64,000 bases of DNA. Origin: a virus. A program made the position numbers and the translations under genes. The stretch spans positions 64,001 through 128,000 of the IMG/VR virus record IMGVR_UViG_3300045988_034373, one strand, 5' to 3'. This document shows positions 4,683 through 46,626 of the stretch, piece after piece (within the stretch, counting starts at the first letter, position 1; each line of letters begins with the position of its first letter). The notes beneath the pieces were generated by a model, which had not been told where the DNA came from, made no database searches, and saw nothing but the letters and a program-made list of their open reading frames with translations.

Positions 4683-4733
4683 ACACTTTACAGTTAGTAG
4701 ATTGTTTAGTTATTTGGCTAACAATTTATTTAA

Positions 4734-15657: not shown

Positions 15658-15725
15658 TATCACTTTCCTCAAGGGAAATATAGAGATTATAATTCAAATT
15701 TTAGATTAATTTAATACTAAGACTA

Positions 15726-28881: not shown

Positions 28882-30243
28882 ATGCAATTAACTCAATCAC
28901 CAAAATTTAACAGAAATTATGCTGCAAAGATTGTAGAGATTAAGGAGTTTATTAAACATCCTAATCCAAAGTGTGAGAGATTAAAATGTTGTACAATCGA
29001 CGGCTATTCTATTGCTGTAAGTATTGATACCAATCCTGGTACATATGTTTACTTCCCTATAGAATGTGCTATTGATGATAGGTTCCTATCTGCCAATAAT
29101 CTCTTTAGAGATAAGATTAAGAACTTCGACAAAGAACAGGCTGGATTCTTTGAAGATAACTGTAGGGTGAAGATAATCAAACTACAAGGTTATCCTTCAG
29201 AAGGGTTCATTGCTCCGATTACCTACCTATATAACTGGCTTACTTTAATTGGTAAGAAGAATGAGGTGGTACATAAGGTTGCTCCTGGCACTGAGTTTGA
29301 CTCTGTGGATGGAGAAATCCTATGCAGGAAGTATGTTCCTAAGACTACTTATACTCCTGGTCAACCAAGAGAAGGTGGCAAAGTTAGGAAGAAACTTAAT
29401 AGAGTAAAGAAAGTAATTGATACTCAATTTAGGTTTCATTATGACACTACTCTTATTAAGAAGTGTCCGTCAGTCATTCATCCCAATGACATTATAAGCA
29501 TTACTGCTAAGGTTCATGGAACCTCTGGTATATCTGCTTATGTATTGTGCGAAAGACCTAAGAAGTGGTATGAGAAAGTATTTGAGTTTCTAACTCGTAA
29601 AGAGATAGATGATACTCGATATGATTATCTGTGGTCTTCAAGGTCCGTAGTTAAGAACCCATATTACAATGAAACTACTAGTGGTGGTTTCTACGGAGTG
29701 GACGTATGGAAGTATGCAGATGATGTTGTTAGACCTCATCTACAGAAAGGAATGACAGCTTACTACGAGATAGTAGGTTATCTACCAAATGGTGGTGCAA
29801 TTCAGAAGTTAGGTGGTAAAGCATTTGATTATGGATTTGAACCTCCGAGAAGTGCAGATAGGTATAAGTATGGAGAGAACTTTGGAATACAAATCTATCG
29901 TTTGACCTATACTAACCCTGACGGACGTGTATATGAGTTTAGTGCAAGACAGGTGCAACAATGGTGTGCCAAAGAAGGCTTAAAGCCTGTAGAGGAATAT
30001 TACTATGGCTATGCTAAAGACTTATATCCAGACTTAGATATTGCTGAGCACTGGAATGAGAACTTCCTACAGAAGTTAGCTAGTGATAAGAATTTCTTCA
30101 TGGAGTGTGAATCTCCAACCTGTAACAATAAAGTATCTCATGAAGGCATTGTTATTAAGATTGAAAACTCTCTATCCGAAGCCTATAAGCTGAAGTGTAT
30201 TAAATTCTTGGAAGGAGAATCTAAATCACTGGATAAGGGTTGA
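28882..30243 (+). CDS. RNA ligase (Rnl2/DRB0094-like nucleotidyltransferase)
   Basis: Motif I is AKVHGTSG (compare KIHGTN in T4 Rnl2). Motif III-like is YYEIVGY, motif IV is HEGIVIKI and motif V is YKLKCIKF. Confidence 0.7.
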   Translation: MQLTQSPKFNRNYAAKIVEIKEFIKHPNPKCERLKCCTIDGYSIAVSIDTNPGTYVYFPIECAIDDRFLSANNLFRDKIKNFDKEQAGFFEDNCRVKIIKLQGYPSEGFIAPITYLYNWLTLIGKKNEVVHKVAPGTEFDSVDGEILCRKYVPKTTYTPGQPREGGKVRKKLNRVKKVIDTQFRFHYDTTLIKKCPSVIHPNDIISITAKVHGTSGISAYVLCERPKKWYEKVFEFLTRKEIDDTRYDYLWSSRSVVKNPYYNETTSGGFYGVDVWKYADDVVRPHLQKGMTAYYEIVGYLPNGGAIQKLGGKAFDYGFEPPRSADRYKYGENFGIQIYRLTYTNPDGRVYEFSARQVQQWCAKEGLKPVEEYYYGYAKDLYPDLDIAEHWNENFLQKLASDKNFFMECESPTCNNKVSHEGIVIKIENSLSEAYKLKCIKFLEGESKSLDKG

Positions 30244-31917: not shown

Positions 31918-32838
31918 ATGGAAACAAGACAGTTAATAATCTGTAGAGGTATTCAAGGCTCAGGTAAATCTACTTGGGCTAAGCAATGGTGTCATGAAGA
32001 CCCAGAGCATAGAGTTAGATTCAATAACGATGATGTTCGTAATATGTTAGGTGACTATTGGGTTCCTAACAGAGAGAAGGTTGTTACTGCAACTTATAAC
32101 ACTGTACTAGCTTATAGTATGGAGAAAGGTTATAATATTGTAGTTGATAACATGAACCTTAATCCTAAGACTTGTACTGAGTTAGAGAAGATGGTTAAGG
32201 ACTTTAACGAGAATTATATCTATGATTGGAAGTATGAAGTTGAATACAAAGACTTCTTCATCCCAGTTGAAGAGTGTATTCGTCGTGATGCTATGAGACC
32301 TAATCCAATAGGAGAGAAGGTTATTAAAGCAACCTGGAGAAGGTATCGTGATTTTATTATCCAAGAAGATATTAAAGGTATGTTAAAGAGAGCACCTAAG
32401 CATGTAGATGGCGGACGTCCTGTTATATTAGTAGACATGGACGCTACATTATGTCTAAATACCACTGGTAGACCTTACTTCGGAGAAGGCGCAGCTGAGG
32501 GTATGCTGGATGATATAGCTATCGAAGGTACTTGTATGCTTGTTAGACGTATGTATGAGAAGTGTAAGGTATTCATTGTTACTGGTAGGGAAGGTACTCC
32601 AGAAATCATAGCTGCCACTAAGAAGTGGTTAGCTAAGCATGATGTTGTTGTCGATGAGTTATTCTTTAGACCAGTTAAGGATTATAGTCCTGGAGCTGAT
32701 TGTAAGAAGAAAATCTATGAGGATAATATCAAAGGTAAGTATAATGTTCAATTCGTTCTTGAGGATAACTATAAGTGTGTCAAGATGTGGAGAGAACAAG
32801 GCTTAGTATGCTTGCAACCTAATGAAGGAAAGTTCTAA
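31918..32838 (+). CDS. polynucleotide 5'-kinase / 3'-phosphatase (T4 Pnkp-like)
   Basis: N-terminal P-loop is CRGIQGSGKSTWA. The C-terminal HAD phosphatase has ILVDMDATLC (DxDxT) and IVTGREG. Confidence 0.8.
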   Translation: METRQLIICRGIQGSGKSTWAKQWCHEDPEHRVRFNNDDVRNMLGDYWVPNREKVVTATYNTVLAYSMEKGYNIVVDNMNLNPKTCTELEKMVKDFNENYIYDWKYEVEYKDFFIPVEECIRRDAMRPNPIGEKVIKATWRRYRDFIIQEDIKGMLKRAPKHVDGGRPVILVDMDATLCLNTTGRPYFGEGAAEGMLDDIAIEGTCMLVRRMYEKCKVFIVTGREGTPEIIAATKKWLAKHDVVVDELFFRPVKDYSPGADCKKKIYEDNIKGKYNVQFVLEDNYKCVKMWREQGLVCLQPNEGKF

Positions 32839-33006
32839 TGGCAATATTAGTAGGACAGCTAATTGAAATACTGAAACAATTCGACCCTGATAGAGAAGTG
32901 GTAATACACACTCTTTAAAAATGTTGACGTTAATGGGTACTTTGTGCAGAAAGATATAAATGATACCAATTTTTTACTTAACAGACTTAGACGTAATTCC
33001 ACGTGA
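32838..33006 (+). CDS. small hypothetical protein, contiguous only with a +1 shift at CTT-T-AAA (32913-32919)
   Basis: MAILVGQLIEILKQFDPDREVVIHTL then TAA. The +1 frame continues KNVDVNGYFVQKDINDTNFLLNRLRRNST and stops in a GTGA overlap with the next gene start. Confidence 0.35.
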
Positions 33007-33341
33007 CTGATTTGGATAAGAGGTTCTTAACTAATACTGATGAAACTGGTAGGTTTATTGTTAAATCTCTAGTTACTGGCAAGAAGTATTATGTTGAACC
33101 AATAGGCAATGGACACCCTGCTGATTGGGGTGATATTAACCCTGCTACTAAGAAGGTAGAGGGAGATTATGGTCAGAAATATACTGGCTGTGTATCTGAG
33201 AAGGAATCATTAATAACTCCTGAGAATGGTTTCAAACTTATTGAAACTCTTGAAGCTGGTATGAGTCCACTTAGTGTAGTATATCAAAGAGATTTGGAAT
33301 ATGAGAAACTAATGGACAAATCAAATGAAATTCAAGGGTGA
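33003..33341 (+). CDS. hypothetical protein
   Basis: GTG start. 112 aa. Confidence 0.5.
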   Translation: MTDLDKRFLTNTDETGRFIVKSLVTGKKYYVEPIGNGHPADWGDINPATKKVEGDYGQKYTGCVSEKESLITPENGFKLIETLEAGMSPLSVVYQRDLEYEKLMDKSNEIQG

Positions 33342-33864
33342 TATTATTATAACAGACCCATGTTATATAATTAAAGAAGACTCTGATGATTGGAGTAAGT
33401 GTGGTTGGGGTGAGAGCATGAGTGTACTAGGTCTTACAACCTATATCTCTGAATCTACTCTTTATGGTGATTGGAGTTGTTCTACTTGGTCTACACCTCG
33501 TAAGGATGTAGAAGCACAGTTAGAAGAGCTTAATACTCTAGGAAGAGCAAGATGGGAACTTATGAAGCAGTATGGAGAAGACTCAGTTCAAGCTAAAATC
33601 TACGATGATAAGATAGCTGATGCATCTTTAAACATCAAGAAAATTGGACACTTCTGTGCTGATGCTGGTATGGTGGCTGTGTTCCTATTGGACGAAGTAT
33701 TGAAATATAATCCCGACTTCGATTATCATATTAACAGAGAGTGGACTACTACACTAATCAAAGACTTTGATGGTGAAGTAAACTACTACGTTGATAATGA
33801 AGATGATGCTCACATCATCGGAGTAGGTAATGTTAACTTCTTCACTACACAAACAGGATTCTAA
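33325..33864 (+). CDS. hypothetical protein
   Basis: 179-aa ORF. No motif recognised. Confidence 0.55.
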   Translation: MKFKGDIIITDPCYIIKEDSDDWSKCGWGESMSVLGLTTYISESTLYGDWSCSTWSTPRKDVEAQLEELNTLGRARWELMKQYGEDSVQAKIYDDKIADASLNIKKIGHFCADAGMVAVFLLDEVLKYNPDFDYHINREWTTTLIKDFDGEVNYYVDNEDDAHIIGVGNVNFFTTQTGF

Positions 33865-33865
33865 T

Positions 33866-34108
33866 ATGAAATTCAATTTGTACGAAGACGTAAAGGTATG
33901 TACTTGGCGTAGATACTCTTACGAAGTAGAAGCTGAAACATTAGAGGAAGCTGTTGAGCTGGTTAGAGATGGGGAGGTAGATAGTACTGACATGGAAGAG
34001 TTCTATGATGCTGACTACTTTCTAACTCCTGCAAACAATGAAGGTCGTGCCACACAAGAAATCTATTCAGCTAAAGATGATAAATTGTTGTACTCAAATA
34101 CAGATTAA
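33866..34108 (+). CDS. hypothetical protein
   Basis: ATG33866 lies just after the upstream TAA (MKFNLYEDVKV...). Confidence 0.5.
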   Translation: MKFNLYEDVKVCTWRRYSYEVEAETLEEAVELVRDGEVDSTDMEEFYDADYFLTPANNEGRATQEIYSAKDDKLLYSNTD

Positions 34109-34110
34109 CA

Positions 34111-34869
34111 ATGTATAAGTTTAATGGAGGAAATGGCGCTGTAGTCTGTGATGGATGTAGTGTCATTATGGAACAGAATATTCCATTTGATAAGTATCGT
34201 AAGGAGCATAGTGGTTATGACTTCTGCGAACAATGCCTAAGTAATCTTACTATAGTGGATAACTTTGATATGATTGAGAATATCTTGGAATTTAACAACC
34301 AAGATGAGTTCTACTTTCTACAGATTATCCAACGTAAGAAAGATGGCAATGTAACTCAAATTGGAAACAATGGTTATAGAACTATCAAGACTTACTATAT
34401 CTTTAGTAAAGACCAGTTCCTAACCAAGAAAGAGAAGATTAAAGAACTATGCCTCAAGAATAATGCTAGAGCATACATCCATCTTAATAGAAGGAATGCT
34501 CAAGAGGTAGCATTGGCTTCAATCCAACAATATGCCAAATTAGTTTCAGAAGGTAACTCTTACCAGGGTTACAGAGTATGGGATAGTGCGTGTGGTGGAA
34601 ATAGAGCTAGAGGCTATAAACCATTGTGGGTGGTTGATGTAGACTCCAAAGACCCAGAATATTTAAAGACAGTTATTGAACTGGTTAATGAATGTAGGGG
34701 TGCTGAGGAGAATAAGGTAAGGTATCAAATTCCTACACTACATGGTTATCATCTAATAACTATTGGATTCGATGTTCAACAGTTCAGCCAAAAGCTGGCT
34801 ATTAAGAACATGGACCCGATTGATATTCAGAAGGATAATCCTACTTTGTTGTATTATGCAACTGTTTAA
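34111..34869 (+). CDS. hypothetical protein with N-terminal CxxC...CxxC zinc ribbon
   Basis: Contains VCDGCSV...FCEQCLS. The C-terminal WVVDVDSKD...TLHGYHLIT is noted but not assigned. Confidence 0.55.
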   Translation: MYKFNGGNGAVVCDGCSVIMEQNIPFDKYRKEHSGYDFCEQCLSNLTIVDNFDMIENILEFNNQDEFYFLQIIQRKKDGNVTQIGNNGYRTIKTYYIFSKDQFLTKKEKIKELCLKNNARAYIHLNRRNAQEVALASIQQYAKLVSEGNSYQGYRVWDSACGGNRARGYKPLWVVDVDSKDPEYLKTVIELVNECRGAEENKVRYQIPTLHGYHLITIGFDVQQFSQKLAIKNMDPIDIQKDNPTLLYYATV

Positions 34870-34928
34870 GGCTTTAGAAATAAGTGCTGTATTAGATTAC
34901 TCGTTAGGATTTATAAAAGCAAAACACA

Positions 34929-35153
34929 ATGAGTAATTTACCATTAGGAGCAGAGAATGACCCTTTTGCTCCGTACAACGTTCAAGAAGAGACGTTCAAA
35001 TTTGACTTGGGTGTTAAAGGTATAGCATGGTATGAATACTATGGCTATTTAGACATTGATGAAGCTAAGGAGACTATTAAGCAACGTCTTACAGCAGCTT
35101 TATCACAGCTTGGAGATATTGATATTAATGATGTAGACATAGCTATATATTAA
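34929..35153 (+). CDS. hypothetical protein
   Basis: 74-aa ORF. Its stop overlaps the polymerase start (TAATG). Confidence 0.5.
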   Translation: MSNLPLGAENDPFAPYNVQEETFKFDLGVKGIAWYEYYGYLDIDEAKETIKQRLTAALSQLGDIDINDVDIAIY

Positions 35154-37321
35154 TGATATATTTAGTAACCAAGCAACAGTCTCTTTGGGCTTCTGACAGA
35201 TATAAGGTCATTAGTGCTGAAGAGGCTTTAGAACTATTAGCACCTCTCAGTGTAGTAGAGCTGGATACTGAAACTATGGGTTTAGACCCGTATACTAAGG
35301 AACTATTAACTGTTCAACTTGGTTGTGCAGACTTCCAAGTAGTTATTGATTGTACATCTGTTGATATACACCTATTTAAGGAGTATATGGAGAATCCACA
35401 AAGGATGTTCTTAGGTTGGAATATTAAGTTTGACTTGAAATTCCTATATCACCAGAGAATCATTCCCATGAGGGTTTATGATGGTTATCTAGCCGAGAAA
35501 TTACTTTGGCTAGGCTATCCAGCAGGTATGCACGAGATGAGCTTGAAGGCTGCTAGTATCAATTATCTAGGAGTAGATATGGATAAGTCTGTACGAGGTA
35601 AGATTATACAGACTGGATTAACAGAAGATGTTATTGTGTATGCTGCTGGTGATGTCTCTTATCTGGGTAAGATTAGAGATAAGCAACTTGAACAACTCGA
35701 AGCTAAAGGCTTATTAAAGGCTATTGACTTTGAAAATGAGTTTGTTAAGTGTCTAGCATATATAGAATATTGTGGGGCTAAGTTAGACGTAGGTAAGTGG
35801 AGAATTAAAATGACTACTGACCTTAATAACCTTGAAAGATATGAAGCAGAGCTAAATGATTGGGTAGAGCGTTATTGTCATGAATATAGTGATAAGAGCT
35901 ATACTATCAATCAAGTTATCCATATTGATAAATGGTATAAGACAGAGGATGCACTCAAAGAAGAGAGAGCTAAATTACCTCTTAATGCTGTTAGAGCACC
36001 AGAGTTTGATTCTACTGGAGCGAGTCATGACAGTGAAGCTTATGTCATTAAGCAAACTGGTAACTATTGTTCTGTAAATATGCAGGGCGATTTGTTCAGT
36101 GGGTTTGATACTAAGCCAAGATGTCATATAAACTGGACTAGTTCCCAACAAGTAATCCCATTGTTTGAAGAATTGGGATTGAATCTAAGAGTATTGGATA
36201 AGAAGACCAAGCATTATAAGAAGTCTGTGGATATTAAAGTGGTAGAACCGCAGGCATCTAAGAGTCCTCTAATTCCAATCTATATAAAGTACAAGAAAGC
36301 TGCTATCATCGTTAATACCTTTGGTCAGAAGTTCTTGAACTTGATAAACCCCGTTACTGGTAGAATACATGCCAATTTCAATCAGTTAGGAACGGATACT
36401 GGTAGGTTAAGTTCAACAGAACCTAATCTACAGAATCTACCACATGATGCTCAGACTAGAGCGTGCTTTGTTTCCGATACAGGTAACAAATGGATTTCAG
36501 CCGATTATAGTGGTCAAGAGTCATATCTAATGGCATCTATGGCTAACGATGAGGCTATGTTAGAAGAACTTACTAATGGTAGTGGTGACTTGCATAGTCT
36601 AACCGCCAAGATGGTATTCCAGCAAATCCCAAGGGATATGCCCCTAAAGGATATTAAGAAGAACTTTAAAGACCTAAGGCAAGAAGCCAAAGGTTATGAG
36701 TTCTGTTTCAATTATGGTGGTCAAGACAGTACCTTAATAAGGAATTATGGTCTTGATGCCAAGAGAGCTAAAGAAATCTATGAGAACTATATGTCAGGTT
36801 TTGCTGGCTTAAAGAGGTATCAGGATTTCAGAAGAGTAGATGTTATGCGTAAAGGTTATATCTTATTAAGTAAGATAACTGGTCATAAAGCATATATCTA
36901 TGATTATGATGAACTTAAAAGACAAATGGATAAGCAAGAAGACCCTGAGTTCTGGGCTTATTATAGAGAAATGAAGCAGGAAGACCCTGATTGTGACACT
37001 GTACAAGGTGTTAGACGTTTAGCCAGGCGTAAAGCAGAGTCTGAGAAGCAATCTATTAATTATCCAATTCAGGCTGCTGGTGCATTGTGTTTTAAGTTAG
37101 CATCTATAAAGCTATTCAACTGGCTATTAAAGAATGGCTTGTTATTCAAGGTTAAATATTGTATTCCAGTACATGATGAAATTAATCTTGAAGCTCCAGA
37201 AGAGATTTCACAAGAAGTTGCAGATATATTAGTTAAGTGCATGGTAAGTGCAGGTAAACCATTCTGTACAAGAGCACATTTAGGTGCTGATGTAGAGATT
37301 GGCGACCATTGGATTCATTAA
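35153..37321 (+). CDS. family-A DNA polymerase with 3'-5' exonuclease domain
   Basis: ExoI is ELDTETMGL, ExoII is WNIKFDLKFL and ExoIII is YAAGDVSYL. Pol motif A is ISADYSGQESYL, motif B is RQEAKGYEFCFNYGG and motif C is IPVHDEINLE. Confidence 0.95.
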   Translation: MIYLVTKQQSLWASDRYKVISAEEALELLAPLSVVELDTETMGLDPYTKELLTVQLGCADFQVVIDCTSVDIHLFKEYMENPQRMFLGWNIKFDLKFLYHQRIIPMRVYDGYLAEKLLWLGYPAGMHEMSLKAASINYLGVDMDKSVRGKIIQTGLTEDVIVYAAGDVSYLGKIRDKQLEQLEAKGLLKAIDFENEFVKCLAYIEYCGAKLDVGKWRIKMTTDLNNLERYEAELNDWVERYCHEYSDKSYTINQVIHIDKWYKTEDALKEERAKLPLNAVRAPEFDSTGASHDSEAYVIKQTGNYCSVNMQGDLFSGFDTKPRCHINWTSSQQVIPLFEELGLNLRVLDKKTKHYKKSVDIKVVEPQASKSPLIPIYIKYKKAAIIVNTFGQKFLNLINPVTGRIHANFNQLGTDTGRLSSTEPNLQNLPHDAQTRACFVSDTGNKWISADYSGQESYLMASMANDEAMLEELTNGSGDLHSLTAKMVFQQIPRDMPLKDIKKNFKDLRQEAKGYEFCFNYGGQDSTLIRNYGLDAKRAKEIYENYMSGFAGLKRYQDFRRVDVMRKGYILLSKITGHKAYIYDYDELKRQMDKQEDPEFWAYYREMKQEDPDCDTVQGVRRLARRKAESEKQSINYPIQAAGALCFKLASIKLFNWLLKNGLLFKVKYCIPVHDEINLEAPEEISQEVADILVKCMVSAGKPFCTRAHLGADVEIGDHWIH

Positions 37322-37322
37322 T

Positions 37323-37544
37323 ATGGGTAAATATTTAGACTTAAGCTCAGTAATTGATGTTGAACCACCTGTATCACAGGTATTACCTCTCATTGAGGAT
37401 GAAGACCTCCAAGATGAATTCTGGCAAAGACTTGATGAAGGATTCTTCAGAGACTTTGTTGAAGATTACTGTAAACAGCAGGACATCGAGATAATGAGGG
37501 AGATAATCGAAGAGGCATATCAATCATCTATTGATGCAGACTGA
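37323..37544 (+). CDS. hypothetical acidic protein
   Basis: ATG37323 lies directly after the polA stop (MGKYLDLSS...). Confidence 0.5.
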   Translation: MGKYLDLSSVIDVEPPVSQVLPLIEDEDLQDEFWQRLDEGFFRDFVEDYCKQQDIEIMREIIEEAYQSSIDAD

Positions 37545-38061
37545 AATTGAAAGGAAGTTCCTAACTACTAACAGCTTGTTCAAAGAGCAGGCTGTTAGGG
37601 TTATGGACATACGTCAAGGATACATAGGGATTACCGATAAGGGAGAAGCTAGAGTATCTATAAGGGATGAGAAGGCATGGATTATAGTCAAGTCCAATGA
37701 AAGACTATCAAGATTGGAGTATGAAATTCCTATTCCTAAGAAGGATGCAGAGGAGTTACTTACAAGAACCTGCGGTAGAGTTATTCATAAGACTCGTTAT
37801 ATTATTCCAGCAACATCTGGTATGTTGAAATGGGAAGTAGATGAGTTCCATGAAGAGGACGACGGGCTAATTATTGCCGAGATAGAGTTACCATCAGAGG
37901 ACACACAGTTTGATAAACCTCAATGGCTTGGTAAAGAAGTAACACAAGATAGTACTTATTATAACTCTACACTCTCTAAGACGCCTTGGAAAGCTATTCA
38001 GAAGTTACATGCTGAAGCTAAAGCCTGGGATGATTGGAGAGATTCATTAGTAAAGAAATGA
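37534..38061 (+). CDS. CYTH-domain protein (triphosphate tunnel metalloenzyme)
   Basis: N-terminal ExExK signature is TEIERKFL. Later acidic strands are EVDEF and AEIELP. Confidence 0.7.
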   Translation: MQTEIERKFLTTNSLFKEQAVRVMDIRQGYIGITDKGEARVSIRDEKAWIIVKSNERLSRLEYEIPIPKKDAEELLTRTCGRVIHKTRYIIPATSGMLKWEVDEFHEEDDGLIIAEIELPSEDTQFDKPQWLGKEVTQDSTYYNSTLSKTPWKAIQKLHAEAKAWDDWRDSLVKK

Positions 38062-38324
38062 AGTATAGGAAGAAACCAGTTATCATTGAAGCTATACAGT
38101 TTGAAGACAATGCAGATTGTATATTAGCTATTCATGAGTTTATGGGGCAGGAAACTACAAGAGTCAACTATGAGGATAAAGATAATCCTTATATAAAGAT
38201 TGAAACTCTTGAAGGTACTATGAAAGCCTCAGTCGGAGATTATATCATCAAAGGTGTGAACGGAGAGTTCTATCCTTGTAAGCCAGATATATTTGAGAAA
38301 ACTTATGAGGAAGTTACTGAATGA
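38058..38324 (+). CDS. phage N4 gp49 / Sf6 gp66-like small protein
   Basis: ATGA overlap. Sequence MKYRKKPVIIEAIQF...GDYIIKGVNGEFYPCKPDIFEKTYEEV follows the family pattern as I remember it. Confidence 0.5.
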   Translation: MKYRKKPVIIEAIQFEDNADCILAIHEFMGQETTRVNYEDKDNPYIKIETLEGTMKASVGDYIIKGVNGEFYPCKPDIFEKTYEEVTE

Positions 38325-39283
38325 AGCTGATTAAACCGTCATTTGAAATACTAGAACAAAAGCCTGGATTAGATGGGCTGTTACAACACATAGAAAGATG
38401 TGGTAGAACTTGTTATAAGTCGGAAGATAAAATAACAGAGGATAGTGCAGAGAAATTTGTAGGTATGTTAGTCAAACGTGGTCATACTGCGATGGTTGAG
38501 CATGGTACTGTATATTTGAAGTACGATATTATTGAGCATGGTTCTATGAACCTCCCAAATAAGTATCACTTCAATGAGTATTCTGTAGTAACTATCAATA
38601 ATGAACCTCTTCATGGATATGAAATTCCAGAATATAAAGAGAAGTTCAACGGACACACATATGCTTATATAACTACTAACTATAGAGTACTACTTCAGAA
38701 TGACTGGTTGGATGACCTTAAGTATCAGTGTGAGCCTTCAGAACACCACGTTAAGCGTGTTACTGTTAAGTTTGTATGCGATAGAGGTGTATCTCATGAG
38801 TTCGTAAGGCATAGAGTCTTTAGCTTTGCTCAAGAGAGTACTAGGTATTGTAATTATTCGAAGGATAAGTTTGGTGGAGATTGCACCTTCATTATTCCAT
38901 CCTGGATTGATAGTGGTGACTTTGAAATTCCTAGAACTCTACGTTGGGGTGAAAACCTAACTTATGAGGTAGAGAGAATTACTGGAGACTATAACAATGC
39001 TCCTTTAAGTGTATATTTGCAAAGCTTATTACAGGCAGAAGAAGCATATATGGAGTTGCTAAAGGAGGGTTGGATAGCTCAACAAGCTAGAGCAGTTCTT
39101 CCTAATAGTTTAAAGACCGAGTTAATTATGACTGGTACTATTGAGCAATGGGAAGGATTCTTTAAACTGAGATGTGCAAAGGACGCTCATCCTCAAGCTA
39201 GGGAGTTGGCGGTACCTCTGTATGAAGAGTTTGTCAAACGAGGATATATTACCGCACGAATATCTAAGGAGATATTATGCTAA
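38321..39283 (+). CDS. thyX: flavin-dependent thymidylate synthase
   Basis: ThyX motif is RHRVFSFAQESTRY (RHRxxSxxxxS). An N-terminal RCGRTCYKS region is also present. Confidence 0.9.
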   Translation: MKLIKPSFEILEQKPGLDGLLQHIERCGRTCYKSEDKITEDSAEKFVGMLVKRGHTAMVEHGTVYLKYDIIEHGSMNLPNKYHFNEYSVVTINNEPLHGYEIPEYKEKFNGHTYAYITTNYRVLLQNDWLDDLKYQCEPSEHHVKRVTVKFVCDRGVSHEFVRHRVFSFAQESTRYCNYSKDKFGGDCTFIIPSWIDSGDFEIPRTLRWGENLTYEVERITGDYNNAPLSVYLQSLLQAEEAYMELLKEGWIAQQARAVLPNSLKTELIMTGTIEQWEGFFKLRCAKDAHPQARELAVPLYEEFVKRGYITARISKEILC

Positions 39284-39405
39284 CAATACAAGTACTAATA
39301 GAGTATCCAGACCCAATGGATAACTGTCTACCTCCTCAAATCTACATCAGAGAATGGCGAGAGGTAGAAGTTACTCCAGAAGAGTGGTACAGAGTACTTT
39401 GCTAA
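39277..39405 (+). CDS. small hypothetical protein (42 aa, below ORF-track cutoff)
   Basis: ATG39277 overlaps the thyX end. Sequence is MLTIQVLIEYPDPMDNCLPPQIYIREWREVEVTPEEWYRVLC*. Confidence 0.3.
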   Translation: MLTIQVLIEYPDPMDNCLPPQIYIREWREVEVTPEEWYRVLC

Positions 39406-39439
39406 TCCTATTGGACACCATTATTACAGAGTATAAATT

Positions 39440-39679
39440 ATGAAAATTAATTACACATCTGGATGTACCTGCGATAGTTTAACTATTGATGGTAAAGAAT
39501 CTGCGGATTTATCTCCGAAAGTTATTAAAGATGCTATAGTAAGAGCATTGGAGAAGATTGATGATATATCAACTCTTCAAGACATCTTGACAACTGTAGC
39601 TGAGACTGGAGAGTATGAAGATTTAGGACATTGTGAACAATGTGGAGATTGGATAACCTCCTATACTCTTGAAATTTGA
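39440..39679 (+). CDS. hypothetical protein
   Basis: 79-aa ORF. Confidence 0.5.
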   Translation: MKINYTSGCTCDSLTIDGKESADLSPKVIKDAIVRALEKIDDISTLQDILTTVAETGEYEDLGHCEQCGDWITSYTLEI

Positions 39680-39680
39680 T

Positions 39681-40368
39681 ATGAAGGCTGAGGAGTACTT
39701 TGGTGACTGGATTGATGTTATTGACAAAGAGGAATTACGTAGAGTAGCAACTTGGGTTAATAAGATTAATTCAGCTAATCTATGTCCTTTCTCCTAAGAA
39801 CATCTTTAAGGCATTTAGGGCTTGCTCATTTAAGGACTGCAAGGTAGTCTTTCTTGGGCAAGACCCTTATCCTCAAAGAGGGGTAGCTACTGGGATACTA
39901 TTTGGTAATTCAGAAGATACTTCTGAGGAGTATCTATCTCCTTCACTTAAAGTAGTTAAAGAGGCTGCTATTAATTATGAAATTCCCCATAACCTTATAG
40001 AGTTTGACAATACGTTAGAGTCTTGGGCTAAGCAAGGAATCTTAATGATTAATACTGCTCTTACTTGTGAAGTAGGTAAAGTTGGAGCACACTTTGACAT
40101 ATGGAAACCCTTTATGTCTAAGTTGATTCACAACATGAGCTATAAAGACGGAGGTATGATTTATGTTCTGTTTGGTAGTCAAGCTGAGTTATTCAAGAAT
40201 GATATAGTAAACAGTCTGAAGACTATTGAGGTATATCATCCAGCATATTATGCTAGGACTGGTAAGAAGATGCCTAGTAGTGTGTTCACTGATATTAATC
40301 AAGCATTGAAGCAGCAATATAACTATCAAATAGAATTTTACAAGGAGACAGAATATGGAACATGTTAA
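39681..40368 (+). CDS. ung: uracil-DNA glycosylase (family 1-like), interrupted by a +1 frameshift near 39788-39797
   Basis: Frame 0 gives MKAEEYFGDW...NSANLCPFS then TAA (39795-39797). The +1 frame continues SPKNIFKAFRACSFKDCKVVFLGQDPYPQRGVATG...EVYHPAYY. GQDPY lies upstream of the first in-frame ATG (40045). Confidence 0.7.
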
Positions 40369-40561
40369 TAGAAAGTCGGTGAATGATAAGCTACGTAAGT
40401 ATGACCATTTAGCTAAGGAAGATGACTTCATTGAGGTTACAGAATGGGCTAATGGTGAAGGTTGGGATGTTACTATAAATGATAGGGTAATCCCACTAAC
40501 TCGTGGCGAATTAGATGCCATTGACTATCTGACTAAAGGTTTAGATTACGATACTAAATAA
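40355..40561 (+). CDS. hypothetical protein
   Basis: 68-aa ORF that overlaps the UDG end. Confidence 0.5.
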   Translation: MEHVNRKSVNDKLRKYDHLAKEDDFIEVTEWANGEGWDVTINDRVIPLTRGELDAIDYLTKGLDYDTK

Positions 40562-40572
40562 TAATTGAAAAG

Positions 40573-41223
40573 ATGAAAGAACAGAAGTTTGAATTTAGTG
40601 CTAAGAACACCTTCTTCACCTCTGACACTCACTTTGGTCATGCTAACATTATAAAGTTATGCAATAGACCATTTAAGGATGTTGGGGAGATGAATGAAAA
40701 GTTGATTGAGAACTGGAATAAAGTAGTCCCAGAGGACGGTACAGTCTTCCACTTGGGAGATTTTGCCTTCGGTGGTAGTGGACTATGGAACAGTGTTATC
40801 CCTCGTCTGAATGGACAAATCTACTTGATTATAGGTAATCATGATAGAAAGAATCTAAGACAAGGTTATATGGATAAGTTTACAGCTGTATTACCACAGA
40901 TGCAGATTCAAATAGAGAAGAGAAGTATCTACTTGAATCATTATCCATTCCTGTGTTATGGAGGTTCATATCGTGACGATGCTGATGCTGTATGGCAGTT
41001 ATTCGGCCACGTTCATTCTGGTCCTACTAGTTCTGGATTGGATTGTGATAGGTTAGTTCATCTATTCCCATATCAGTATGATGTAGGTGTAGATAACAAC
41101 AATTATACTCCAATCTCTTGGGAAGAAGTAAAGACAAAGATTCAGCACCAAATAGATGAAGGAGTAGAGAAATCTGTCAAGGAACACACAATTCCTGACG
41201 AAGTGTATAAACTAAATGACTAA
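40573..41223 (+). CDS. calcineurin-like metallophosphoesterase
   Basis: Motifs are FFTSDTHFGH (DxH), HLGDFAFGG (GDxx), IIGNHD (GNHD) and FGHVHSG (GHxH). Confidence 0.75.
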   Translation: MKEQKFEFSAKNTFFTSDTHFGHANIIKLCNRPFKDVGEMNEKLIENWNKVVPEDGTVFHLGDFAFGGSGLWNSVIPRLNGQIYLIIGNHDRKNLRQGYMDKFTAVLPQMQIQIEKRSIYLNHYPFLCYGGSYRDDADAVWQLFGHVHSGPTSSGLDCDRLVHLFPYQYDVGVDNNNYTPISWEEVKTKIQHQIDEGVEKSVKEHTIPDEVYKLND

Positions 41224-41443
41224 AATATCTTTAGAAATCGACGGTAGGGTATTATCTATGGAGTTACCTTATAATGATGCAACAGCGGAAGAACTTATTA
41301 AGGGCTTTTGTACACTGATGCATGGTCAGACATTCCTTATCTGTACTATTAAGGACTCTCTAAGAGAAGCTGCCCAAGATTATAAGGAGGATATAGAATT
41401 AGGTTATGAATCCAAACACTCTGAGGAAGATTTAAAAGGCTAG
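41216..41443 (+). CDS. hypothetical protein
   Basis: 75-aa ORF ending at TAG 41441-41443. Confidence 0.5.
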   Translation: MTKISLEIDGRVLSMELPYNDATAEELIKGFCTLMHGQTFLICTIKDSLREAAQDYKEDIELGYESKHSEEDLKG

Positions 41444-41722
41444 AAGCTGGTGAGTCATTTATCACCAGTGAGCCAGGTAACTCAATGCTTTCCGTTATAT
41501 AAAAGTAATGAGAAGCATTTGGTTACCCCTATTAAGTGGGAAGATTGTAAGGTAGGTGATGTAGTGTTCTGTAAGGTTAGAGGTTCATGTGTAACTCATA
41601 AGGTCTATGCAGTAGACAATGAGAAGGGTTGCTTAATAGGTAACAACAAAGGACACATGAACGGCTGGACTAAGAATGTATACGGACTTGCTCATAAAAT
41701 TGACCAATCATTTAAAGACTAA
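41406..41722 (+). pseudogene. S24/S26-like Ser-Lys peptidase-fold protein, split by two +1 shifts (41433 and 41491)
   Basis: Three frames join as MNPNTLRKI | KRLEAGESFITSEPGNSML | PLYKSNEKHLVTPIKWEDCKVGDVVFCKVRGSCVTHKVYAV... The GNSMxP Ser block and the later THKV Lys block are restored only after both shifts. The track lists only 41450-41722. Confidence 0.5.
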
Positions 41723-41728
41723 GAAAGC

Positions 41729-42424
41729 TTGAAAATATGTGTAACGTCTGACTTACATGGCATTCTTCCTAAAATAGAAGAGCCTTGTGAGGTAGTGTTG
41801 ATATGCGGAGATATTATGCCACTGCGTATGCAGAGGAACATCCCTCAGAGTGAAAAGTGGCTAAAGACCACATTCGCCGATTGGGTTAATAATCTCCCAT
41901 GCGAATCAGTAATCATGGTGGGAGGTAATCATGACTTTGCCTTAGCTAATATGTATAGGCAACCTCTAAAGATTAACTCAATCTTGACAAATCCTACCAA
42001 TGGTAAACTGGAACTATTAGATAATGAAGCAACATCCGTTATTAGTAAGGATGGTAAGGTATATGATATATGGGGAACTCCCTATTGTAAAATCTTCGGT
42101 AACTGGGCATATATGTATGAGCCAGAGACTTTGATTAAAGCATATGAATCTATGCCTCAGCATTGCGATATTGTTATATCTCACGATGCACCTAAGCTGT
42201 GTGGTTTAGGTGTTATTCACCAGAGATTTGACAGAGAAGATGCTGGTAATCCTTGGTTAGCTGATGAAATGCTTCGTAAACATCCTAGATACACATTCTG
42301 TGGACATATTCATAGTGGTGAGCATGAACTGCAAACCTTTGACGATATGAAGATGGCTAATGTATCTTTAGTAGATGAAACTTACACTGAAACTTTTAAA
42401 CCTTTATACCTCGATGTCGAATAA
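41729..42424 (+). CDS. calcineurin-like metallophosphoesterase
   Basis: TTG start. Motifs are VTSDLHG (DxH), ICGDIMP (GD), VGGNHD (GNHD), ISHDAP and CGHIHSG (GHxH). Confidence 0.7.
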   Translation: MKICVTSDLHGILPKIEEPCEVVLICGDIMPLRMQRNIPQSEKWLKTTFADWVNNLPCESVIMVGGNHDFALANMYRQPLKINSILTNPTNGKLELLDNEATSVISKDGKVYDIWGTPYCKIFGNWAYMYEPETLIKAYESMPQHCDIVISHDAPKLCGLGVIHQRFDREDAGNPWLADEMLRKHPRYTFCGHIHSGEHELQTFDDMKMANVSLVDETYTETFKPLYLDVE

Positions 42425-42623
42425 TAAAGTTGTAGTACAAGGAGGAGTTGGATTCCCTGGATTGTTGTTTATAGTACTGTTAGTTTGTAAACTATTTGGT
42501 GCTAACATAACATGGTTCTGGGTATTTGCTCCATTATGGATTCCGCTTGCATTAATAGCTGGATTCTTTATTGTATCAATTCTAATTGCAATACTTGTAG
42601 CATGGAAAAGAAAACTACTTTAG
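42414..42623 (+). CDS. small two-TM membrane protein
   Basis: ATG42414 lies near the upstream stop. Hydrophobic stretches are GFPGLLFIVLLVCKLF and WVFAPLWIPLALIAGFFIVSILIAILVAW. Confidence 0.5.
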   Translation: MSNNKVVVQGGVGFPGLLFIVLLVCKLFGANITWFWVFAPLWIPLALIAGFFIVSILIAILVAWKRKLL

Positions 42624-42739
42624 TAGTTGTGGACTTCCAGTATGACTTCTGTCTGCTGGGAGCACCACTCTACGTTCCTGGGTCTGATAAGGCTCTGTGG
42701 AACATTTCTCATTTAATTGAGAATAAGAAAGTTTTTTAA
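42602..42739 (+). pseudogene. nicotinamidase/isochorismatase-family N-terminal remnant (45 aa)
   Basis: MEKKTTLVVVDFQYDFCLLGAPLYVPGSDKAL... matches the PncA N-terminal block (hhhVDxQNDFC..G.L.V.G). It stops after 45 codons and I found no continuation in any frame. Confidence 0.45.
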
Positions 42740-42789
42740 TTCTAGGTTCAAAAGATTACTTAGTCCTATCATAGTACCTAGAGAACTAT

Positions 42790-42909
42790 ATGATTGACTT
42801 CCTAGAGCTAATCCTAGAATTAGTAAATGTTAAATCACGTAATGAGCTAGTGGCTCTGCTTGTTATGGGCGGAGTACTAGCCGTTATCTATTATTTGTTT
42901 CTTGTATGA
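42790..42909 (+). CDS. tiny membrane protein (39 aa, below ORF-track cutoff)
   Basis: MIDFLELILELVNVKSRNELVALLVMGGVLAVIYYLFLV*. Its stop overlaps the next ATG (ATGA). Confidence 0.3.
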   Translation: MIDFLELILELVNVKSRNELVALLVMGGVLAVIYYLFLV

Positions 42910-43157
42910 AATTATATTATTTATTCTTATTGGTAATGTTCTTCTTAATGGGTTGTACTAATTCATCTAACATTAGTGGTCCAGATGTTATAGGGACATC
43001 TAAGATGAATGGGGATGTGTACAGGTACACCATTGATGAGCATGAGTATATAAAAATGGGTAATGGCTTTGCACACTCTGGTGCTTGTAAGAAGTGCAAG
43101 AAGGAGTTGGAAAGTACTATCCGTAAAATAGTTAAGGAGGAACGTTCACAATGGTAG
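42906..43157 (+). CDS. small lipoprotein
   Basis: Signal peptide with lipobox: MKLYYLFLLVMFFLMGC|TNSS. Confidence 0.6.
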   Translation: MKLYYLFLLVMFFLMGCTNSSNISGPDVIGTSKMNGDVYRYTIDEHEYIKMGNGFAHSGACKKCKKELESTIRKIVKEERSQW

Positions 43158-43711
43158 GAGTATTCTTTGGGTCTTTTGACCCACCCCATATTGGTCATGT
43201 TAATATTGTCACAGCTGCACTTAATTCTGGTATTGTTGACAAGGTTATAGTAGTTCCAGCATATAAGAGTGTATGGAAGAACACTGAAACTAAGTGGGAG
43301 TATAGACTCACTATGGCTAAGGAAACCTTTGATAACATTCCTGGAGTAGTTGTGGATGGCATTGAGTATCGTATCGCTAATGGAGAACCATTGCCTACTT
43401 ATAAGACCATTGAAGCATTAAAAGAGATTTATGGTGAGTTTATCATCGTAACATCTGCTGAGACTTATAAGGAGATTCCAAGATGGCAGCATGGTGAGGA
43501 GATACTAAAGGACAATAAGTTCTTAGTAGTAGATGTAGCACACTTTAATAGTGAGGATATTCCACATGATGAAGTGAAGGTTATCTATGCTCCTGATATT
43601 ACAATATGCTCTACAGCTATCAGAAAGTGGGTTGACAATGGTAGAATTATATTGCCATTTGTAACAGATGAAGTAAATTCAATAATTAGAAAGCTTGGGT
43701 TATACAAATGA
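43151..43711 (+). CDS. nicotinamide/nicotinate mononucleotide adenylyltransferase (NadD/NMNAT family)
   Basis: Motifs are GVFFGSFDPPHIGH (GxFxPxHxGH) and C-terminal ICSTAIRKW (ISSTxxR-like). Confidence 0.85.
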   Translation: MVGVFFGSFDPPHIGHVNIVTAALNSGIVDKVIVVPAYKSVWKNTETKWEYRLTMAKETFDNIPGVVVDGIEYRIANGEPLPTYKTIEALKEIYGEFIIVTSAETYKEIPRWQHGEEILKDNKFLVVDVAHFNSEDIPHDEVKVIYAPDITICSTAIRKWVDNGRIILPFVTDEVNSIIRKLGLYK

Positions 43712-44241
43712 GTCAAATCTATGTTTCAGGTCCTTGGTCTTTTGCTTCTGGAGTACAGCAAGTAGTTAAGAGTATAAAGGCTAAATCTAAGGGAGATAAG
43801 GTAGTTTATAGTGAGAAAGGAACTGAATATCAATTCTCTAAACTAGAACAATCCGACTATGTCGTATTCGTGTTGGATGGATTTGCATGGCAACAGAGGT
43901 TAGAAAGTATTTCTAAGGGAATGCTCTCAGAACTCATATGGTGTATTAATCATAGAGTTCCAATGTTCCTAGCTTACAAATCAGCTAACGGATTAGGCAT
44001 ATATGCAACTGAAATAGATGACAATTTAACCTTTAAGGGGATTGCAGGCACTGCTGACACCTTCTATCAGATTATAAACAATCAGTTTGGGACTATTGTA
44101 GCTCCAAATGATACTCCTGGGTTTGTTCTGAGTCACCAAGACACAGTATTAGGGAGTGATTGTGTATATTTGAAGGGAGAGTGGATAGCTGACCCATTAG
44201 ATTTCCTTAATGTTGAACAACCAAAGAGTTACTTTTATTAA
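43708..44241 (+). CDS. hypothetical protein (nucleoside 2-deoxyribosyltransferase-like Rossmann fold?)
   Basis: IYVSGPWSF...SDYVVFVLDGFAW...SKGMLSELIWCINHRVPMFLAY resembles the NDT/DUF4406 layout. Weak and from memory. Confidence 0.45.
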   Translation: MSQIYVSGPWSFASGVQQVVKSIKAKSKGDKVVYSEKGTEYQFSKLEQSDYVVFVLDGFAWQQRLESISKGMLSELIWCINHRVPMFLAYKSANGLGIYATEIDDNLTFKGIAGTADTFYQIINNQFGTIVAPNDTPGFVLSHQDTVLGSDCVYLKGEWIADPLDFLNVEQPKSYFY

Positions 44242-44242
44242 T

Positions 44243-44785
44243 ATGAAGAACTTTCCTTTATTAGACGAGAATGGTAAGGAATGGTGGATTAGCCGTTCTA
44301 TTGCTGTAACAGGATGTATATTTACATTCCTAAATGGTAAGTGGTGTGTGCTAGCCAATAAGAGAGGTGAAGGCACTCCCGATTTCCAGGGAATGTGGAA
44401 TATGCCATGTGGTTACTTAGACTTTGATGAAACTACAGCACAAGCTGTGGTTAGAGAGGTTTATGAAGAGACTGGTGTCAAGGTGAATCCAGAGTACTTA
44501 CACTTCTGGAAGTTCAATGACTCTCCAACTCAGAATAGGCAGAATGTATCATTCAGATACTATGCTCTAGTTGATGCACAGCCAGGTAATATCAGTGTAG
44601 GCACTGGTAATGACAGAGGTGGTGAAGAGGACGAGGTAGAAGCTATTGGATGGATTCCAGTAGACTCTATTGATAAATATCAGTGGGCATTTGGTCACGA
44701 TGAGATTATCAAAGAGTTTACTGAGTGGATGCACTTAGAAGATGGAGATTTGGATATGCAAGACATAGACTTAGACCCAGTATGA
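44243..44785 (+). CDS. Nudix hydrolase
   Basis: An exact Nudix box is present: GYLDFDETTAQAVVREVYEETGV (Gx5Ex7REUxEExGU). Confidence 0.9.
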   Translation: MKNFPLLDENGKEWWISRSIAVTGCIFTFLNGKWCVLANKRGEGTPDFQGMWNMPCGYLDFDETTAQAVVREVYEETGVKVNPEYLHFWKFNDSPTQNRQNVSFRYYALVDAQPGNISVGTGNDRGGEEDEVEAIGWIPVDSIDKYQWAFGHDEIIKEFTEWMHLEDGDLDMQDIDLDPV

Positions 44786-45159
44786 CATACTTTATAAGTG
44801 GACATAGAGACTTAACATGGGAGGAGTTTGCCAGATGGTATGCTCCTGCCATTAGTAAAGTCATTTGTACAGACAGTGAAGCTAAATTTGTTGTAGGAGA
44901 CTGTGAAGGTGCAGATAGAATGGCACAAGACTATCTATCATCCTGTGGAGTTTTCTTTAAGAATGTCACTGTATATCATATGTTTAAAGCTCCTAGATAT
45001 ATGACTAGAAGCTGTGTCCCTACACAAGGAGGTTTTACATCTGATGTAGAGAGGGATACGGCTATGACTGAGCACTCAGATTGTGATATTGCCTTTATTC
45101 GTAAGGGTAAGGAGTCGTCTGGAACTGCTCAAAACATTCTAAGAAGATGGACAAAGTAG
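44782..45159 (+). CDS. DUF2493/YspA-like SLOG-fold protein (tentative)
   Basis: ATGA overlap. YFISGHRDLTWEEF...FVVGDCEGADRMAQDYL resembles the SLOG pattern hhhSGxR...GGxxGADxxA. Confidence 0.45.
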   Translation: MTYFISGHRDLTWEEFARWYAPAISKVICTDSEAKFVVGDCEGADRMAQDYLSSCGVFFKNVTVYHMFKAPRYMTRSCVPTQGGFTSDVERDTAMTEHSDCDIAFIRKGKESSGTAQNILRRWTK

Positions 45160-45329
45160 AAGAATACTTCAATAATAAGAATCTGACTGATAAGGAAAGA
45201 TTTGAAGTCTTGAGGTTACATTTTACTAGTCTATTCCTACAACATCCTAAGATGCTCGAAGTTCTATCTTATAAGGATATAGTACTGAAAGCTAAAGAAT
45301 TTACCAAAGAATATCTAAAGCATGAATAA
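45147..45329 (+). CDS. hypothetical protein
   Basis: 60-aa ORF. Confidence 0.5.
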   Translation: MDKVEEYFNNKNLTDKERFEVLRLHFTSLFLQHPKMLEVLSYKDIVLKAKEFTKEYLKHE

Positions 45330-45741
45330 GTTTATATTCCTAGACATAGATGGGGTTATGAATAGTAATCTCTTCTACTCTGAAAGAACCCAAGATAAGA
45401 GATATAATGATTGGATTAAAGAGCATCCTCAGCGTATAGCTTGGAATGCTTGTAATATTGACCCAAGAGCAGTGGAAAGGCTGAACAGACTTACTGATGC
45501 TACTGGAGCCAAGATTGTTGTATCTTCTACTTGGAGAAGTGATAGTAATTTGCAGGAAGTATTTAACCTTGTTGGAATTAAAGAACCTATACACGATGTA
45601 ACTCCTTATATGAGAAGTAGGCATAGAGGTTCCGAAATCCAAGAGTGGTTAGATAAGCAAACTGAACCTTATCGGTATGTAATCTTTGACGATGATACTG
45701 ATATGTTGGACTCTCAATTACCTTATTTCAATTCAATCTGA
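45322..45741 (+). CDS. HAD-superfamily phosphatase (HAD_SAK RNA-repair-associated type); a C-terminal extension is in the +1 frame to 45832
   Basis: Motifs are FIFLDIDGVMNS, VVSSTWRS and VIFDDDTDM. After the TTT at 45726-45728, the +1 frame reads ...IQSDWLKWGLSDEDVEQAIHILNDTDTTAETHL*. Confidence 0.6.
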   Translation: MNKFIFLDIDGVMNSNLFYSERTQDKRYNDWIKEHPQRIAWNACNIDPRAVERLNRLTDATGAKIVVSSTWRSDSNLQEVFNLVGIKEPIHDVTPYMRSRHRGSEIQEWLDKQTEPYRYVIFDDDTDMLDSQLPYFNSI

Positions 45742-45952
45742 TTGGTTGAAATGGGGTCTAAGTGATGAAGATGTTGAACAAGCAATACATATTCTAAATG
45801 ATACCGATACAACCGCTGAGACACATCTATAATGACCCTTCATTGGATAGAGCACTTCTATTAAGGAAGCTAGCATCTCTCAGACTAAAAGAGTATGATT
45901 AGTATTGAAGAGTATGAGTATTTAAAACATTTAATAAGAAAGGAGAACGAAA

Positions 45953-46417
45953 ATGCTCAGAGAGCAAATGGGTGCACTTATTAAGCAATCAATGCTTGAT
46001 AAGAATGTAAAGAGAACAGAAGTATTGAGAGCTATCAAGAATGAGTTCTTGGTATACCAAACTGCTAAGGGTGCTAAACCTTTAGATGATGCAGCCGAGT
46101 TTACTATTCTTCGTAAGATGGTAAAACAGAGATTGGACAGTAGAGACCAATACATTGCAGCTGGAAGGAAAGACTTAGCCGATAACGAATCCAAAGAGAT
46201 TCTTGTGCTTGAGTCTTTCCTTCCGAGTGAAGCCTCACCTGAGGAAATTACTAAAGCAATCTATGAGGTTATCTCAGAGAAGGGTTGGGGTGACGGAGAG
46301 ACAGGTCCCCAAATCCCGAAGAAGTGCATGGGAGAGGCTATTAAGTTGGTCAAGGCAAAGCTTGCTAATGTAGATGGTAAACTGTTGGCTGATACAATTA
46401 AGACTTATCTTGTATGA
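45953..46417 (+). CDS. GatB/YqeY-domain protein
   Basis: LREQMGALIKQSMLDKNVKRTEVLRAIKNEF...ILESFLP fits the YqeY family pattern. Confidence 0.65.
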   Translation: MLREQMGALIKQSMLDKNVKRTEVLRAIKNEFLVYQTAKGAKPLDDAAEFTILRKMVKQRLDSRDQYIAAGRKDLADNESKEILVLESFLPSEASPEEITKAIYEVISEKGWGDGETGPQIPKKCMGEAIKLVKAKLANVDGKLLADTIKTYLV

Positions 46418-46626
46418 CACTAAAGGAAATAGTGACTCTTCCAGCTGAAGCAAAGTTTACTCATGCAATAGCTGGAACTCTTTACTATAGAATCACAACT
46501 GACAATATAGTAGTAGAGTTTCCTATTGATATGAATGATAAGGATGATGTAGGTACAACTACATTTGTAGCTTCTTATAAGCCTATTTACATTAATGAGG
46601 TACATAAGAAAGGCTATGGAGAATGA
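46414..46626 (+). CDS. hypothetical protein
   Basis: 70-aa ORF with an ATGA overlap. Confidence 0.5.
   Translation: MTLKEIVTLPAEAKFTHAIAGTLYYRITTDNIVVEFPIDMNDKDDVGTTTFVASYKPIYINEVHKKGYGE

Follow-up and report, generated by a model that had tools for sequence, protein, structure and literature searches.

Strain-private single-base insertions and probable decay of accessory genes in a putative crAss-like gut phage

A stretch of viral DNA of 64,000 nucleotides (nt), positions 64,001 to 128,000 of the IMG/VR record IMGVR_UViG_3300045988_034373 and referred to here as the window, contains five sites at which a gene is interrupted by a net gain of one base. They are located in a small gene of 58 amino acids (aa) (site 1), a uracil-DNA glycosylase (UDG) superfamily gene (site 2), a small, tentatively S24/LexA-like gene (sites 3 and 4) and a HAD phosphatase-like gene (site 5). 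Comparison with related contigs showed that these insertions, and eight others in the window, are derived and private, that the orthologous genes are intact and that the insertions are distributed in a non-random manner. The lesions are probably real, strain-private frameshift mutations that passed through the filter of selection, that is, a case of pseudogenisation in which no programmed mechanism takes part. Frameshift pseudogenisation of this kind is already known, and the bias towards the insertion of T is the only part worth a follow-up.

Normally intact genes are broken at five sites

A preliminary description of the window had located all five interruptions at TTT runs (32914-32916, 39788-39790, 41431-41433, 41489-41491 and 45726-45728), which are indeed present at these positions, and had regarded each of them as repaired by skipping a single T. 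The window is part of the 182,000-bp scaffold ZEEV15-1_SAMEA3664750_METAG-scaffold_21 (ENA ERZ28661991) from an Illumina metagenome assembly, with identical sequence. A megablast search of the region against GenBank phages yielded one marginal match only, of no use for comparison. From IMG/VR, 34 close relatives with 77-96% nucleotide identity were retrieved by a scan with a neighbouring gene. The repaired proteins were compared with the relatives' loci by tblastn, followed by base-level alignments. In addition, the whole window was scanned for private insertions and deletions (indels) against about 200 related loci, and the hits were verified by local alignments and in closer contigs; the closest sampled relatives of the window strain are 97-99% identical to it.

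In every related contig carrying them (about 30 to 45 contigs), the genes hit at the five sites are intact and in a single frame, without any of the inserted bases. Because the repaired proteins align in one frame across the junctions in these relatives, with families or orthologues matched through them, the five interruptions are real breaks of normally intact genes, as had been proposed. The broken genes and private changes described below all refer to the + strand.

The gene of site 1 (32838-33007) is of unknown function and is hit twice. Relatives encode MAILVGQLIEILKQFDPDREVVIHTLKGENVDVNGYFVQKDINDTNFYLTDLDVIPRD in one frame, a protein of 58 aa. At the site itself they read CTCTTAAAGGGGAGAATG and the window reads CTCTTTAAAAATG; according to the base-level alignment, the simplest account is a T insertion (TT to TTT at 32914-32916) combined with an adjacent deletion of 6 nt, so that the skipping of one T is an oversimplified repair here. 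The change creates CTT TAA. It is true, as had been noted, that the zero frame runs straight into TAA at this site (CTT TAA A) and at site 3 (ATT TAA A). Joining the frames at site 1 results in a 55-aa protein without a family match. The second insertion, T5 to T6 at 32970-32975, is seen against the C-terminus of the relatives, NFYLTDLDVIPRD. Elsewhere in the clade, most of the 58-aa gene has been lost between two CTTAA repeats (L014:15-119), and a 112-aa gene orthologous to window positions 33003-33341 has a 7-nt deletion of its own (L002:1246).

The UDG gene (39681-40368; 228 aa when repaired) is broken at codon 36 by a clean TT to TTT change at 39788-39790: GTCC-TTCTCC in the relatives has become GTCCTTTCTCC in the window. 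The repaired protein matches the Pfam family UDG (PF03167) with E=2.4e-10 and 41.1 bits, against a gathering cut-off of 24.3, and it matches phrog_12143 over residues 13-218, across the junction. The extra T is absent in 34 of 34 relatives and the intact 228-aa UDG is found on 10 further contigs; the TTT is reproduced in one other sequence, the Logan contig L062. In one relative, the gene has been broken independently by a 10-nt deletion at about codon 107 (L037:9100-9800). Furthermore, gene calls on 44 contigs include a C-terminal UDG fragment of 107 aa (P0018), and there are several N-terminal fragments of 30-55 aa (P0047-P0052). With independent breaks in other lineages, the UDG gene seems to have been lost more than once in the clade.

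Three TT to TTT changes are present in the S24-like gene (41406-41732; about 107 aa), at 41431-41433, 41489-41491 and 41711-41713, and base-level alignments show that the relatives lack each of them. Sites 3 and 4 are clean: AAGA-TTAAAA in the relatives corresponds to AAGATTTAAAA in the window, and ATGC-TTCCG to ATGCTTTCCG, the latter inside a GNSMLP motif. Intact orthologues of 96-106 aa share 87-98% identity with the repaired protein across both of these junctions. It has the GNSMLP motif and a conserved K, but the joined protein of about 104 aa scores below the cut-off for Pfam Peptidase_S24 (E=0.0068, 16.5 bits against 23.3), and no match to the PDB was found by sequence or profile search. 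In the relatives, a 72-aa upstream gene overlaps the start of the S24-like gene; the insertion at 41431-41433 also extends this upstream gene to 75 aa. The two open reading frames (ORFs) 41216-41443 and 41450-41722 are in the same frame with a single TAG between them. TAG read-through was considered and rejected, the arrangement being, according to the orthologues, a by-product of two +1 insertions. One relative has its own 7-nt deletion in the S24-like gene (L020:11001).

Site 5 is of a different nature. The HAD_SAK_2 phosphatase-like gene (45322-45832; about 170 aa) is broken at about codon 137. Here the TTT at 45726-45728 is ancestral and kept in the relatives (TTATTTC-ATTCAATC), and the inserted base is an A (A to AA at 45730-45731): TTC-ATTCAA in the relatives has changed to TTCAATTCAA in the window. 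The insertion completes a perfect repeat, TTCAA TTCAA, at 45727-45736. With the junction spanned, the repaired protein matches HAD_SAK_2 (PF18143) over profile positions 2-139 of 139 (E=1.3e-25, 90.8 bits against a cut-off of 27.5). Repair by skipping one T at a TTT run thus holds for sites 2, 3 and 4 and fails at site 5.

Number, spectrum and placement of the insertions

In total, the window contains 13 private +1 insertions, namely 11 of T on the coding strand, mostly TT to TTT, and two of A. Apart from the five sites and the additional hits in the 58-aa and S24-like genes, two of them fall near gene ends. A T to TT change at 30240-30241, absent in 41 of 41 relatives, generates a new TGA stop in ORF 28882-30243 and shortens a 461-aa protein to 453 aa, with loss of the last 8 residues; removal of the T restores 461 aa, and the orthologues measure 459-461 aa. 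At 46586-46588, near the 3' end of ORF 46414-46626, a TT to TTT change, likewise absent in 41 of 41 relatives, leads to an altered and shortened C-terminus (70 instead of 82 aa), and the 70-aa product occurs on the contig of the window strain only. The remaining insertions are intergenic. Three are TT to TTT changes: at 4713-4715 (absent in 32 of 32 IMG/VR relatives and in 6 of 6 closer contigs), at 34873-34875 between a 252-aa and a 74-aa gene (absent in 33 of 33 relatives and in L002), and at 39398-39400 upstream of a 79-aa gene. The last is absent in L207 and L209-L211, which are 98.4-99.2% identical, and in L216 (94.8%), and is also present in Logan contig L062. The fourth is an A to AA change at 15708-15709, the extra A being absent from 83 of 84 aligned loci; it completes TTAAT TTAAT at 15706-15715.

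The window-wide scan revealed no unpaired private 1-nt deletion anywhere in the window, and all five original sites are net +1, which bears out the earlier remark that there are no -1 cases. The 18-mers bearing the 13 insertions occur in none of more than 200 related loci, Logan contig L062 excepted, and the insertion-bearing sequences have no match in IMG/VR or in JGI metagenome contigs. Correspondingly, the truncated products are found on two contig records only, while neighbouring intact proteins are found on at least 1000 contigs; a "JGI/IMG" source label attached to the truncated proteins could not be traced to a second contig.

In a region of 20 kb common to the window and the 34 relatives, the window has six unpaired private indels of a length other than a multiple of three, all of them insertions. 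Each of the 34 relatives has 0-2 such indels; their sum is 11, with 10 deletions among them. Set against private substitutions, private indels therefore stand at 6:52 in the window and at 11:2083 in the relatives (Fisher P=3e-6), a ratio some 20-fold that of the sister lineages; the ratio of insertions to deletions is 6:0 against 1:10 (P=6e-4). The private lesions of the relatives are mostly deletions. The preference for T over A, relative to the abundance of A and T runs, has P=0.012, as calculated with 9 T among the first 11 insertions (11 of 13 in the final tally). The closest contig, L207, which is 99.2% identical, differs from the window by five T insertions over 4 kb and by no other indel.

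T runs of at least 3 nt occur about every 74 nt in the window, and skipping one T at a TTT run is not in itself informative. TTT sites at which such a skip joins at least 25 open codons to at least 25 more are no commoner than chance would have it: there are 18 of them on the + strand, against 57 on the - strand and 18-44 in shuffled sequences. The check by ORF extension that had been suggested for the interruptions therefore shows no excess. It is because of the homology evidence, and not of ORF extension, that the interruptions stand. In an AT-rich phage, the extension of an ORF after a base skip has no discriminating power, and it was the comparison with relatives that decided.

The placement of the insertions is far from random. 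Eight of the 13 are intergenic or at most 15 codons from the end of a gene (simulation P=8e-5). Only four genes are hit more than 15 codons from their end, two of them repeatedly (P=8e-4), and the four do not exceed 229 aa in length, though genes longer than that make up 61% of the window (P=2e-5). Within 30-47 kb alone, the placement signal still amounts to P=0.002-0.009. All large and core genes over the 64 kb are intact, giant ORFs included, in agreement with the statement that core and giant genes had been spared. Directly after a 2896-aa ORF, beyond the 3' end of the window, a giant ORF of 3178 aa (L217:18702-28238) is uninterrupted as well.

Probable lineage-specific gene decay

Among the explanations put forward at the outset, the biased pseudogenisation of dispensable genes fits these data: the insertions are private to one strain, occur between genes as well, pile up in genes that are already broken and avoid large and core genes. 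In this scenario, one strain would have gained at least 13 single-base duplications after its split from the closest sampled relatives. The survivors would be the insertions of low cost only, located between genes, in the final few codons of a gene or in accessory genes that the phage can do without, namely the 58-aa gene, UDG, the small S24-like gene and the HAD phosphatase gene. The placement suggests that it was selection that did the filtering. The two hits in the 58-aa gene and the three in the S24-like gene can be understood because further hits are neutral once a gene is dead.

A larger loss would belong to the same decay. A deletion junction at 42733-42737 marks the absence of 2.4-2.7 kb (window 42733 to 42735/37 corresponds to L003 11844 to 14514, with similar situations in L027, L007 and L018). 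At this locus, the relatives encode an isochorismatase-like protein of 194 aa and a NAPRTase of 387 aa. The deletion has taken most of the former gene, the latter and neighbouring genes, leaving a 45-aa stub, and amounts to a loss of NAD-salvage genes; the NMNAT-like gene downstream (43151-43711) is retained. Signs of relaxed constraint are found in the three insertions of the S24-like gene, in the two insertions and the 6-nt deletion of the 58-aa gene, and in this deletion.

In many respects, the case resembles ordinary frameshift pseudogenes, with a derived 1-nt change in a run, intact orthologues in relatives, dispensable genes as targets, repeated hits in dead genes and an accompanying deletion of several kb. 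It differs from them in the 13 insertions without any deletion, in the 11 coding-strand T, in the mostly 2-nt runs and in an indel to substitution ratio about 20 times that of sisters. The insertions may have arisen through replication slippage or misalignment with a bias in strand and direction. In both A insertions, the new base completes a perfect tandem repeat of 5 nt, which suggests templated misalignment rather than simple run slippage. For the T insertions, no sequence motif or templating rule was found.

The bias towards +T only is significant. It is conceivable, though rather doubtful, that some specific mutagenic condition has left its mark on the phage lineage in this way. As speculative candidates, one could imagine a slippage-prone replisome, for instance with a processivity defect, a dTTP-rich pool after the loss of nucleotide-metabolism genes, or damage directed at thymines in the exposed non-template strand, for instance through a host defence, with subsequent error-prone bypass. 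If true, such a condition would have left a natural mutational signature in a phage, visible because selection left the neutral hits only. Two more specific ideas were rejected. The private substitutions of the window consist for 69% of A:T>G:C transitions, as might be expected of a deficiency in mismatch repair, but sister lineages with short branches are alike (57-80%). A polymerase cause is not supported either: PolA is identical in L002, which is without the three insertions that it covers, and consequently the PolA sequence is no marker of the insertion-bearing lineage.

Alternative explanations

Several observations weigh against gene decay and speak for a sample-specific sequencing or assembly artefact, in which the extra T or A would not be present in the phage DNA and would stem from low coverage or a run-specific insertion error. 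An inserted base is supported by a second assembly at only 2 of the 13 sites, and the pattern is restricted to one assembly among the very many of the clade, as a sample-specific technical cause would also bring about. An insertions-only, T-biased spectrum is odd for natural indels; it is unlike ordinary slippage and opposite to the indels of the relatives, which are mostly deletions. Some hits, such as the pairs 32916/32970 and 41431/41489, are 58-60 nt apart, within one read length, and could share single reads. Finally, the substitution spectrum of the lineage is unremarkable, so that there is no independent sign of a mutator. On the other side, insertions at 2-nt runs are very rare in Illumina consensus sequences. 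The independent Logan assembly of run ERR1137206 contains a 1715-bp contig (L062) with 100% identity, in which the TTT is present both at 39398-39400 and at 39788-39790. Other samples from the same study and the ZEEV15-1 assembly series (SAMEA3664631 and SAMEA3665126; L208, L213 and L220) read TT, and these contexts are thus not systematically misread. Moreover, random errors should strike the large genes, which constitute 61% of the sequence, and the observed avoidance, which looks like the outcome of selection, has a P of about 1e-4 window-wide and of 0.002-0.009 regionally. It is well documented (Cooley and Wright 2024, PMC11017572) that assemblies of low coverage can give rise to spurious frameshift pseudogenes; as in the present case, these appear in one assembly with many more frameshifted genes than near-identical genomes. 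The window is different in that a second assembler arrived at the same bases at two sites, the pipeline is clean elsewhere, and large and core genes are avoided. The T-insertion error of technological origin that had been listed as a first option is accordingly judged unlikely, although it retains some weight.

Less probable still is a read-through of the breaks, by +1 ribosomal frameshifting or by transcriptional slippage, whether in a strong form, in which accessory genes are throttled, or in a weak form, in which an incidental leak turns the breaks into partial knock-downs. The frameshift site of prfB is CUU UGA C, a slippery codon followed by a stop. CTT TAA A at site 1 is of like form, with Leu CUU, then U plus stop and a required shift of +1, and ATT TAA A at site 3 also has the stop directly after the run; sites 2, 4 and 5 do not have this shifty-stop form. 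A Shine-Dalgarno-like GAGGA is located just upstream of site 3, and a leak would reduce the cost of the mutations and aid their persistence. Site 1, however, unlike prfB, is not conserved and has no Shine-Dalgarno stimulator at the right distance, about 3 nt upstream of the slippery codon; the sequence upstream of it, GTAATACACACT, contains no Shine-Dalgarno-like string. Not one of the more than 200 related loci carries the insertions and the orthologues are in a single frame, hence there is nothing conserved or designed. The absence of the insertions from all relatives, same-study contigs included, excludes conserved programmed frameshifting, just as it disfavours a systematic platform error. 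In addition, insertions of this type are also present between genes. To be read through, the S24-like gene would require a shift at three places and the 58-aa gene at two, and the base gained at site 5 is an A, the true position of which lacks a slippery run. At sites 1-4 the runs measure 3 nt and at site 5 they measure 2 nt (AA), as opposed to about 7-9 nt or more for transcriptional slippage. The earlier suggestion of a regulatory frameshift thus finds no support, and any leak at CTT TAA A or ATT TAA A would be a by-product of mutation. It is harder still to believe that the contig mixes two co-existing strains in a chimeric consensus, or that it stems from a defective subpopulation that does not propagate. 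The region was assembled by Logan as no more than a 1.7-kb piece, a hint of strain complexity or low depth, and parts of the region are mosaic with respect to the relatives (38.9-39.3 kb). A chimera, however, cannot create bases that are carried by no sampled strain, and the intact state of the large and core genes and of the following 3178-aa ORF argues for purifying selection and therefore for a replicating lineage.

The phage and its clade

The window has a GC content of about 37%, its GC skew is positive throughout and nearly all genes are on the + strand; no tRNA was found in it. Its family-A DNA polymerase PolA, the sole hallmark gene compared, is 50-56% identical to the PolA of the crAss-like phages cr111_1, IAS virus and crAss001. 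A crAss-like gut phage is thus predicted, on the basis of this similarity and of size. The contig resembles the large zeta-like crAss-like phages of the human gut (PMC12386605; PMC7886860) in its size (182 kb), its GC content and its crAss-like PolA, and furthermore in a CCA-adding enzyme, nucleotide-metabolism genes, giant late ORFs and the co-orientation of all genes. In contrast to these phages, no stop-codon reassignment is visible in the window. The epsilon group of crAss-like phages is smaller than zeta (144-159 kb). Two unaffected proteins that flank the insertion at 34873-34875 are unchanged on at least 1000 public contigs, indicating that the clade is very common.

For annotation, the account in terms of gene decay means that the ORF fragments are to be labelled as strain-specific pseudogenes (UDG, HAD, S24-like and small-protein), and not as recoding sites or separate small genes. 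It would also provide a natural list of genes that a crAss-like lineage may lose: UDG, the HAD phosphatase gene, the S24-like gene and the NAD-salvage genes. Should reads confirm the inserted bases, an unusual +T insertion spectrum would have been found in a gut phage.

Other variation in the window and its relatives

Besides the private insertions, intergenic region 1170-1424 contains an extra T (TTT to TTTT) with a T missing 7 nt downstream (the pair 1333/1340), as compared with all of at least 30 relatives. Such a length-compensating pair might hint at a structured element. Differences in the length of T or A runs at 947-949, 1214-1216 and 13067 are common to a minority of the IMG/VR relatives and are therefore not private; in this clade, short runs in intergenic DNA commonly vary in length.

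In the ThyX gene (38321-39283), 10 of the 52 private substitutions are clustered at 38463-39045, with an eleventh at 39184. The cluster adjoins a part, at about 38876-39045, that aligns poorly to most relatives, and it is probably a recombination tract from an unsampled lineage. In a contig from sample SAMEA3665126 (L213:854-2516), a metallophosphatase of 216 aa is split into 96 and 117 aa around a LAGLIDADG-type ORF of 279 aa, which is probably a mobile intron or intein insertion.

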